The position numbers are program-made. This document shows positions 36,699-39,600 of a stretch of 64,000 bases of DNA, piece by piece. Where the stretch lies: the NCBI RefSeq assembly GCF_013167455.1, contig NZ_CP038328.1, one strand, 5' to 3'. The DNA comes from Escherichia coli O157:H7. GTDB taxonomy: Bacteria; Pseudomonadota; Gammaproteobacteria; Enterobacterales; Enterobacteriaceae. Numbering within the stretch: the first letter of the stretch is position 1; every line of letters begins with the position of its first letter.

Positions 36699-39600
36699 TA
36701 ATGAGGGACGTATTTGTATTAGTCGCGACTTGATCTGACACATGGCCTTGAAAGGTTGAGAGTTACCGGTTTTGATATGAGTGTCGAATCCTTATCCAAA
36801 ACAAGAGGTAACTCTCATGCTTCATACTGCCAATCCCGTCATCAAACACAAAGCCGGTTTGCTCAATCTGGCTGAAGAACTCAGCAACGTATCAAAAGCC
36901 TGTAAAATCATGGGCGTTTCGCGTGATACGTTTTATCGTTACCGCGAACTGGTCGCTGAAGGCGGTGTGGATGCGCAGATTAATCGTAGTCGCCGCGCTC
37001 CTAACCTTAAGAACCGTACCGATGAGGCAACTGAACAGGCTGTTGTTGATTACGCCGTCGCTTTCCCGACACATGGTCAGCACCGGGCCAGCAACGAACT
37101 GCGTAAACAGGGGGTTTTTATCTCCGACAGTGGTGTCCGTTCTGTCTGGTTACTCCATAACCTTGAGAATCTCAAAAGACGATACTGAACAAATTTTATC
37201 AGGTGACGTTCCGTAAAAAGTTGTATGGAGTTCTCGATGCAGTCGGCGCGACTATCAGTACCCCCGCTGAACCCTGGACTATCGGGCCGCCGTACTGGGG
37301 CATGTCACCCTGGCGTGCCGCTGGTTTTCCGCTAATGGTTTATTTCCTCTTTCTTTCCCGGCAAGAATTTATTTTAATCCGGAAGGATTATTTATTTTCA
37401 GATAGGGACTCACATTAAACACGTAACATTTTAATTAATGCATGGCTGAATATGTATTACACAATGTCAGATATCGTAAAAGACCAGTGCAATTCTATGT
37501 AAACTCTCTGACTGTTCATTTTATTTGTTGTTTCAGGGTCGGAACTCACCCTCAATAAACAACTGAATACGAGTAGATATTCATCGTCTGAGCTATATGG
37601 CTTTACACAATAGCCGACATGTCTTTTCTCAGTCAGGAATTTTACTTTTCCTCACTACGAAGTTGACGACTTCGATATGGGATAGACTCTTAATTCAAGC
37701 AATTACTCTGCACAAGCATCAGGCAATCCAGCTCCAATATTTGTTATAAAATAATGCGTAACATTAATTTCACCAACAAAAAAAGGTTTACACCATCCCC
37801 TTGCCCTGGTATCTTACCATATTTACACCACACTTTTTTTGTATCTGGATCATTCTTTGATACGATTTTCGCCACTTGTTCCCTGGCCCTCACTGTCAAT
37901 GTTTTCTTAAACCTCCCCCCATCATCATTTGTTAGGGAAAAATAAGAAAAAAATAATCATCTTCTACATTTGTGTATATTGATATATCCACCGCTACGTG
38001 CGGAAAAAAATCTGGGAGCCATGTAAAAACTCCATCATTTTCTGGTATTGCCATATAGTTTATGTAATGTTTACTTACAAGAGATTCATCTTTGTATAAA
38101 TAAAGATAAGTAATTACGCATAAAACAACAATGATTATAATAGCAATAATAAATATTATCATCTTTGATAGATTACTTGAGATAGCCAGCATCTTGTAAA
38201 GCCTTTATCGTTTCTTTATGCTCTGGATTAATATAATCACTACATCTATCTGAGCAATCTGTTGTTGATGGACATGTCAACCCATGGTCATTTACAGCCA
38301 AGTCTTTTTTATTATCTTCAATCATTTCAGAATGGGATAGCTTTACTTTTCTGCCGTACATACCGAACAGATTTAACCCGTAATCTCTAATCTCTTTTTC
38401 ATAACCCAGCCCTTTCGCCGATCGGCTAACACCAGCGTCATTTAATTTAGACACTCGACAAAATGCCATACAATGGAAAAATTGATCAGTCCCACCTAAA
38501 TTTAATCTCTTCATATCTTCATAAGTATCAGATAATATATCCCATGCTCTTTGATGGTTTAGTTGATCTTTTCTTCTTATTAGCGCTACATCTGCGGGAC
38601 TTAACCCTAATGGATCAATACCATTCACCGGATTCAGCGGATACGCATACAGACTCCATCCCCCCTCCAGCCCTATCGGGTCCTGAGTGATATACCGCCC
38701 CTGCAACGGATCGTAGTACCGGTTCCGGTTGTAGTACAGCCCCGACTCCTTATCATACTGCTGCCCCGGCAGCCGGTACGGCTGGTGCAGGTGATGCGGG
38801 TTCTCCTCATTCAGCTGGTTGCCCCATTCATCATACTCCCCGCTCCACGCCGTATTGCCGTCTTCGCTGATGAGCGCCAGCGGCAGGCCCCGGTGGTCGC
38901 AGTGGTAAAGATGAACTTTTCTCGCCGGTGTGTATTCCGGCTCCACCTGTCTGGCCAGTTGCTCCACCGTCAGCCCGCACTGCGCAAGCCACGCCCGGCT
39001 TTCACTGCTCACGCGGTCTGCCCGGATTTCTTCCTCCAGTCTGTCCAGCAGCCGCACCAGTTCAGCCGGAAATACCACACCGTGCCCGTCCTCGCTCCCT
39101 TCCTGCTGCAGCTTCTCCGCCAGGCTGCGGCGCTGCGCTTTCTCCCGCTCACCGTTGTCTGTTTCGATGCGGATGAGCGGCGCGAAGCTTCCCGGCTCGT
39201 ATACCGTCTGGATACGCGTGGTGTCGGTCTGTACCGTCGTCAGCCGGTCGCCGTCCCACCCGTACCACGTCACCTCCGGTTTCCGCGACAGCGACATCCA
39301 TCCCGTCAGGTCACGCCCGCGACGCCACACCCGTTTCCCCGTCCGGCGGCCCAGCGGGTCGTAGAGGTAGCGGCTCTCGACCAGTGGCTCGCCATGCTGT
39401 ATCCGCGTGTAGAACACCAGGCGGTGCTGGCTGTCGTAGTGGTAGTGGTGGGTCCGCTCGTCGTCCGTCCGTATCACACCCGCCGGGATGCGGTCCGTCT
39501 TCTCCGTCAGCCTGCCGTATTCATCGTGTCGGTAGACATAGTGCGCATCCTCCGCGATGCGGTTATCCGGCCACGCCGTGAGCGTGCTGTCCGGGTGTAG

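Follow-up and report, generated by a model that had tools for sequence, protein, structure and literature searches.

A truncated remnant of ybbD, the probable immunity gene of a serum-amyloid-A-like Rhs toxin tip, at the rhsD locus of Escherichia coli O157:H7

The rhs gene at the rhsD locus of Escherichia coli O157:H7 is overlapped at its stop codon by a short open reading frame (ORF) of 86 codons, which a preliminary description had proposed as the candidate cognate immunity gene of the toxin tip encoded at the 3' end of rhs. We analysed this ORF within a 64,000-nucleotide stretch of DNA (hereafter the window; NCBI RefSeq assembly GCF_013167455.1, contig NZ_CP038328.1; coordinates are collected in Table 1). 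Comparison with intact alleles showed that the ORF is the truncated 5' remnant of ybbD, a gene of 163 codons, in a doubly frameshifted allele of the O157:H7 type. We consider it probable (roughly 0.75) that ybbD is the cognate immunity gene of a serum-amyloid-A-like (SAA-like) rhs tip, and that it was recently inactivated here by the loss of two T residues.

Intact ybbD is 492 nucleotides long and carries three T tracts, of seven residues at site 0 and of eight at both site 1 and site 2. In the window one T is missing from each of the two longer tracts, leaving 490 nucleotides. Three-frame translation of the minus strand across 37600-38192 placed codons 1-82 in frame one, a further 53 codons (SYFSLTNDDGGRFKK...GQGDGV) in frame two and the last 28 codons (KPFFVGEINVTHYFITNIGAGLPDACAE, then the stop) in frame three. 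The preliminary description, which gave no strand (it is minus), had missed this continuation of the reading frame, by which 77 further codons lie downstream of the 86-codon ORF after the shift. Longer homologues exist, among them a 149-residue protein that runs on ...DDYFFSYFSLTNDDGG... where the window has ...DDYFFLIFP and a stop. Inserting one T at each of the two tracts restored a 163-residue protein that differs only by I16 for F16 from the intact allele of another E. coli locus (L010), which argues that the damage is recent.

When K-12 and six other E. coli loci were aligned to the window, the differences were single-T insertions or deletions in homopolymer tracts. An uninterrupted 163-codon coding sequence was present at five of the six additional loci (L010, L011, L012, L014 and L015), named either 'YbbD family protein' or 'hypothetical protein', and in strain TUM1226 (L014) it directly follows a full-length Rhs core protein. 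In one E. coli strain site 0 is T8 and the product has 78 residues. Frameshifts have thus arisen at three different tracts across lineages, and an orphan tip of Hafnia is truncated as well; taken together, this is a pattern of decay and not of design. The opposite decay pattern was also observed: at L010 and L011 (E. coli 2015C-3905, ST866; locus positions 1-1520) ybbD is intact at 163 codons, the full-length rhs gene upstream is annotated as frameshifted and the tip forms a separate ORF of 151 codons.

We then counted the states of the tracts among 5426 complete E. coli genomes, a collection biased towards O157 and K-12 derivatives whose bias the counts inherit. The ybbD region was found in 2767 of them. 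Short exact-match queries, which give marginal counts per site, returned T7 at site 1 in 1712 and T8 in 530 of the 2325 genomes matching the main allele, and T7 at site 2 in 352 of 2751 genomes, all five of the T7 rows sampled being O157:H7. Among 59 genomes sampled systematically, the match to the region was 493 nucleotides long (the window type) in 10, 494 nucleotides in 28, 495 nucleotides (the intact length) in 16 and 496 nucleotides in 5.

Such tracts might act as a switch or be read through, either by reversible T7/T8 phase variation or by a slip of -1 on U UUU UUU, in translation or in transcription, that would supply a low level of full-length protein. A frame change of -1 on U7 would yield exactly the intact protein sequence, the 490-nucleotide gene holds three T tracts of at least seven residues, all three of them variable between genomes, and the downstream frames carry no further damage. 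The absence of further damage is, however, equally explained by recency, the alleles being at least 99% identical, and the tracts are plain Phe-Phe codons, the gene having about 30% G+C. Moreover, the second frameshift is fixed over 352 genomes, all those sampled being O157:H7, and so looks clonal and not switching. Programmed -1 frameshifting was considered in its own right and rejected: although U7 is a formal slippery heptamer, there was no significant RNA structure 3' of the tract in either E. coli (z = -0.03) or Hafnia (z = +1.0), and a full-length product from the window would take two independent slips. We regard a switch or read-through as very unlikely.

The whole 163-residue protein appears to be the functional unit. 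Comparison of the E. coli gene with the repaired Hafnia gene gave a ratio of non-synonymous to synonymous substitution rates (dN/dS) of 0.39 over codons 1-82 and of 0.37 over codons 83-163, values that indicate purifying selection on both halves. An AlphaFold2 model of the repaired protein, built on 36 sequences (mean predicted local distance difference test score (pLDDT) 84.7), comprises an N-terminal helix (residues 6-37), three strands (38-45, 68-75 and 80-86), two helices (89-98 and 105-114) and three further strands (120-127, 135-142 and 147-151), and the residues that follow the N-terminal helix are predicted to form a single alpha/beta unit. The alignment of the YbbD family shows two conserved cysteines, both past residue 120 and both lost in the 86-residue product. 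Truncation at residue 82 leaves the N-terminal anchor (residues 12-30) and the first three strands but neither of the two domain helices, so that the window holds the anchor of the family and not the complete alpha/beta domain with its cysteine pair. The truncation removes half of a single predicted domain, including both cysteines, and the reading of the 86-codon ORF as the immunity gene as such is not supported.

A different account is that the membrane-anchored 86-residue product suffices for immunity, its transmembrane helix and juxtamembrane 'head' binding the toxin and its C-terminal half being dispensable. The best-conserved motif of the family lies at residues 44-70, Pfam treats the 'YbbD head' as a unit whose match the 86-residue forms carry, the 86-residue form is the commonest state in E. 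coli and, in O157:H7, this truncated form coexists with an intact toxin gene. Against this, the C-terminal half is as constrained as the head, the modelled domain is single, with a sheet built from strands of both halves, and both conserved cysteines are missing from the short form. The truncation points also differ in other lineages, where products of 78 and 149 residues occur, and the partners found at divergent tips are all 143-173 residues long (see below). On balance the sufficiency of the 86-residue form seems unlikely. We think it distinctly improbable, too, that the ybbD tracts make immunity to the SAA-like Rhs toxin reversible and phase-variable in E. coli, T8/T8 lineages being immune and T7 lineages non-immune, or else that the 86-residue stub is a functional minimal immunity protein.

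In the window the rhs gene and the 86-codon ORF overlap by 20 nucleotides (38173-38192) at the rhs stop, and the same overlap between tip and ybbD recurs in K-12 and at other E. coli loci, which places ybbD in the position of an immunity gene. We looked up the neighbours of five divergent tips, four of which had a contig on record (P0066 had none). At all four, the tips being 38-56% identical to that of the window, the next gene encodes 143-173 residues, about twice the length of the 86-codon ORF, overlaps or abuts the stop of the tip and carries a membrane or lipid anchor. The 173-residue partner, which follows the tip of 56% identity, has a YbbD_head match of unmarked strength; the 168-residue partner (49%) has no Pfam match on record and was recovered by the YbbD family profile; the 156-residue (44%) and 143-residue (38%) partners have YbbD_head matches that are faint and weak, respectively. 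A search with the family profile returned full-length members of 143-176 residues, the 86-residue forms being limited to E. coli and Hafnia-type sequences, and in the AlphaFold database the YbbD_head proteins are about 115-230 residues long, come from many genera and in several cases are named 'Lipoprotein'. By these sequence comparisons the YbbD family is well supported as the putative immunity partner of this tip family. The initial proposal of a cognate immunity gene thus stands as to position and as to the co-occurrence of the two families at divergent loci, the latter being a check that it had itself suggested. It does not stand for the 86-codon ORF, which is only the truncated 5' part of a twice-frameshifted 163-codon gene and is shorter than every partner found at the divergent tips.

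Hafnia alvei has an orphan copy of the same tip, followed by a homologue that is 77% identical to the 86-codon ORF. This orphan module (L007, 3417-3947 and 4001-4261) has a prematurely stopped tip and the T7 frameshift of ybbD at site 1. Although Hafnia shares this frameshift with E. coli, an intact Hafnia-type 163-residue form (P0147) is present in metagenomes and the Hafnia tip is truncated, so that recurrent mutation of a hypermutable tract in decaying modules is the best reading. Another locus (L004; GCA_003324795.1, 1832-5667) carries orphan modules in series, in the order of an Ntox16-like fragment paired with a DUF6714 ORF, an SAA-like tip paired with a 173-codon YbbD-like gene, and TseH paired with Imm58. 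YbfC, whose ORF follows ybfO, the other orphan tip of K-12, was tried as a paralogue of YbbD, proved unrelated (BLASTP E = 6.8) and was left out of the alignments.

That the 86-codon ORF is genuine coding sequence follows from its homology and not from its length. The features first described for it were borne out: it is 86 codons long and very AT-rich, starts 20 base pairs before the rhs stop and encodes an N-terminal transmembrane helix, residues 12-30 being its top 19-residue hydropathy window (Kyte-Doolittle mean 3.46). Its G+C content is 28.0%, that across ybbD is 28-33% and that of the tip 36.9%, whereas the rhs core reaches 64.3% and the window as a whole 52.6%, which marks ybbD and the tip as a common AT-rich module set apart from the GC-rich core. 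In such DNA an open frame might nonetheless have arisen by chance, given that mononucleotide shuffles of the local 600 nucleotides produced an ORF of at least 86 codons in 37 of 2000 cases (about 2%) and that a scan of a Pfam-A library, apparently one lacking PF26610, returned for the ORF only noise from the transmembrane helix. The length of the ORF is by itself weak evidence for coding. Homology at the level of the family, purifying selection and conserved synteny with the tip nevertheless refute an origin by chance, to which we give practically no weight. The identical ORF is annotated in RefSeq as 'hypothetical protein' (WP_001303832.1), and PF26610 (YbbD_head) has precomputed matches on proteins identical or near-identical to it. 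NCBIfam keeps separate models for the two lengths of YbbD. Against the 86-residue model (NF011297) the ORF scored 193.4 bits, with a cut-off of 173, whereas against the 163-residue model (NF011298) it scored 174.5 bits, falling below the cut-off of 326 because only positions 1-85 are present.

The tip appears, from its sequence and predicted structure, to be a bacterial homologue of serum amyloid A that matches the published prok-SAA/Lipocone family. It has 92 relatives at the level of 50% clusters, in almost all of which the match lies at or near the C terminus of proteins that vary widely in length, an arrangement typical of a polymorphic toxin tip. The Pfam SAA family was matched by the tip itself with E = 3.6e-4 and by 29 of 47 aligned sequences, one of these being human SAA1, which had been added to the alignment as a sequence entered by hand. 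An AlphaFold2 model of the tip (pLDDT 96.6) is a helical bundle for which the top seven Foldseek matches in the PDB were all SAA1 or SAA3, with a probability of 1.0. D39, H43, E70, D100, N104 and G107 are invariant in the tip alignment, human SAA1 included, and all are kept in the window. The tip shows the sequence and fold likeness, the sNxxG motif and the conserved polar residues by which prok-SAA/Lipocone members are recognized. Some relatives of the tip end in ...GLPEKY, as animal SAA does (P0136).

Several features of the two families bear on where toxin and immunity protein would meet. In one family member an LLAAC lipobox stands in place of the transmembrane helix, the charges on either side of the E. 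coli helix point weakly to an N-in orientation and conserved cysteines occur in the toxin family as well as in the immunity family; on these grounds the immunity domain is best placed in the periplasm. An SAA-like tip fits a periplasmic, membrane-lipid target, and the suggestion made at the outset, that a membrane-anchored immunity protein hints at toxin action at or near the membrane, is reasonable in the light of this anchor, these cysteines and the published Lipocone predictions (PMC12419801). We propose that intact YbbD would be held in the membrane by its N-terminal anchor, a single transmembrane helix, probably N-in, or in some relatives a lipoprotein signal, and that this anchor would display an alpha/beta domain of about 125 residues in the periplasm. 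There the domain may bind and neutralise a toxin domain delivered by the type VI secretion system of a neighbouring cell, the toxin being a member of a superfamily whose predicted targets are lipid head groups at the membrane. In the window, the loss of one T from the first of two T8 tracts shifts the frame at codon 83 and ends translation at codon 86, that from the second adding a further shift. The transmembrane helix is left, with three of the roughly seven beta-strands; the two domain helices and the two conserved cysteines are gone and, with them, presumably the function of the product. The most likely state of ybbD is that of a recently inactivated immunity gene, its loss tolerated because the Rhs toxin is not fired at kin.

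Several observations weigh against this interpretation. The most highly conserved motif of the family, NY..IP..G..WLPDFFP, lies within the 86 residues that are retained. The majority state of site 1 in main-allele genomes is T7, which occurs in Hafnia too, and selection against the truncated form is therefore not obvious. The toxin gene looks intact in the window, with every conserved residue of the tip present, and a live toxin without its immunity in one cell would be unexpected if the system were ever fired at kin. In the literature we found no experiment on any YbbD protein, and the sources examined record no function for the family. In the O157:H7 lineage an apparently intact toxin persists next to an immunity gene that is broken twice over, which suggests that this Rhs is not deployed against kin. 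According to PMC7216683, Wan et al. (2017) reported an enterohaemorrhagic E. coli (EHEC) hns mutant to be without bactericidal activity, which fits a lineage able to afford the loss of immunity.

Table 1. Positions of the rhs-ybbD features in the window
Feature	Position	Strand	Description
rhs gene	38173..42369	-	Intact, 1398 aa (amino acids), rhsD locus; 'RHS element core protein', WP_000014801.1
Rhs C-terminal toxin tip	38173..38601	-	142 aa, AT-rich, after DPLGL motif; serum-amyloid-A-like (prok-SAA/Lipocone) by sequence and model, conserved residues intact
ybbD pseudogene, whole	37703..38192	-	490 nt (nucleotides) in the window, 492 nt when intact
86-aa ORF, 5' ybbD fragment	37932..38192	-	ATG start; codons 1-82 authentic, then four out-of-frame codons (LIFP) and stop
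Poly-T tract, site 1	37947..37953	-	A7 on the plus strand; T7 in the window, T8 in intact genes; creates the stop of the 86-aa ORF
51-aa ORF	37744..37899	-	TTG start; middle segment of ybbD, in the frame entered after site 1
Poly-T tract, site 2	37778..37784	-	A7 on the plus strand; T7 in the window, T8 in K-12 and intact genes; second frameshift

The surroundings of the ORF are those of E. coli rhsD in reversed orientation (gcl, allR, allA, allS, mnmH, a ylbG-like fragment and rhs on the minus strand), and a 1001-nucleotide query across the ORF was 100% identical to many O157:H7 chromosomes. On the 3' side of ybbD lies a short remnant of an Rhs N terminus (37241-37336, minus strand), which corresponds to the K-12 pseudogene ylbI and is entered in RefSeq as an incomplete hypothetical protein. 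Further on, an ORF of 135 codons (36781-37188, plus strand) with a helix-turn-helix or transposase-like N terminus is the counterpart of K-12 ylbG, and in O157 genomes RefSeq lists it as an incomplete pseudogene. Within the 86-codon ORF a terminator-like hairpin (38015-38033, minus strand) is followed by a T-run that is the site-0 tract; one such structure was found where 0.6 were expected, and it is probably due to chance. A scan of the region for promoter consensus sequences gave no promoter-like excess. In K-12, genomic SELEX (systematic evolution of ligands by exponential enrichment) placed an RpoD-holoenzyme site between ylbH and ybbD (PMC3946193).

In conclusion, our analysis corrects an annotation, the ORF being a fragment of the ybbD pseudogene and not an intact immunity gene. 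It adds consistent genomic evidence for the uncharacterised YbbD family as the likely immunity partner of SAA-like (prok-SAA) Rhs toxins, and the anchoring of YbbD supports a periplasmic site of action for these toxins. The findings open no long-standing question, and the gene is an ordinary decayed one of a known kind. The likeness of the tip to SAA, an RhsD immunity ORF proposed in silico, the link from membrane-anchored immunity to a membrane-proximal target and the class of system were all known already.

The closest known counterpart is ybbD of K-12 (b0501), the orthologous locus, which is 99.4% identical in DNA sequence, overlaps its tip by the same 20 nucleotides and shares the T7 frameshift at site 1; with that deletion only, it is annotated as a pseudogene of 491 nucleotides. 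It differs in that the window has the second frameshift, at site 2, and in that the tip of the window sits on a full-length Rhs protein, whereas that of K-12 is the orphan ylbH. For EHEC EDL933, Vazquez-Lopez and Navarro-Garcia (2020; PMC7216683) found in silico that the C terminus of RhsD (z0651) resembles human SAA1 and named z0654 'RhsDI', a putative RhsD immunity protein. According to the portions of that article drawn on here, the proposal has in common with the present case the strain type, the rhs gene and the idea that a small ORF 3' of rhsD confers immunity, and z0654 may correspond to the 86-codon ORF. The same portions differ from our account in making no mention of frameshifts, of the intact 163-residue form or of a membrane anchor, and in reading the tip in eukaryotic terms.

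Burroughs, Nicastro and Aravind (2025; PMC12419801) place prok-SAA tips in the 'Lipocone' superfamily, for which they predict lipid head groups or polyisoprenoid carriers as targets, and describe the immunity proteins of prok-SAA/Lipocone toxins as transmembrane proteins or lipoproteins acting in the periplasm; their tables list a transmembrane-anchored 'Imm-SAA' downstream of prok-SAA and RHS. The resemblance to the present case lies in a prok-SAA tip on an RHS or type VI toxin, followed by an immunity protein with a transmembrane or lipid anchor and predicted periplasmic action, and the 86-codon ORF is itself transmembrane-anchored and downstream of a prok-SAA tip. YbbD is not named in that article. 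The domain coupled there to prok-SAA is described as one helix and four strands with four invariant cysteines, whereas YbbD is modelled with about seven strands and two helices and shows two conserved cysteines, a comparison made by description only, and it is our own reading that this description belongs to the name Imm-SAA. By analogy, YbbD may also be likened to TipC of Streptococcus intermedius, the extracytoplasmic immunity protein of TelC, a toxin of the Lipocone superfamily that acts on lipid II outside the cytoplasm (PMC12419801). In both cases a Lipocone toxin acting outside the cytoplasm would be met by an extracytoplasmic immunity protein, although TelC and TipC belong to a type VII secretion system and differ from the Rhs tip and YbbD in toxin family and in immunity fold.
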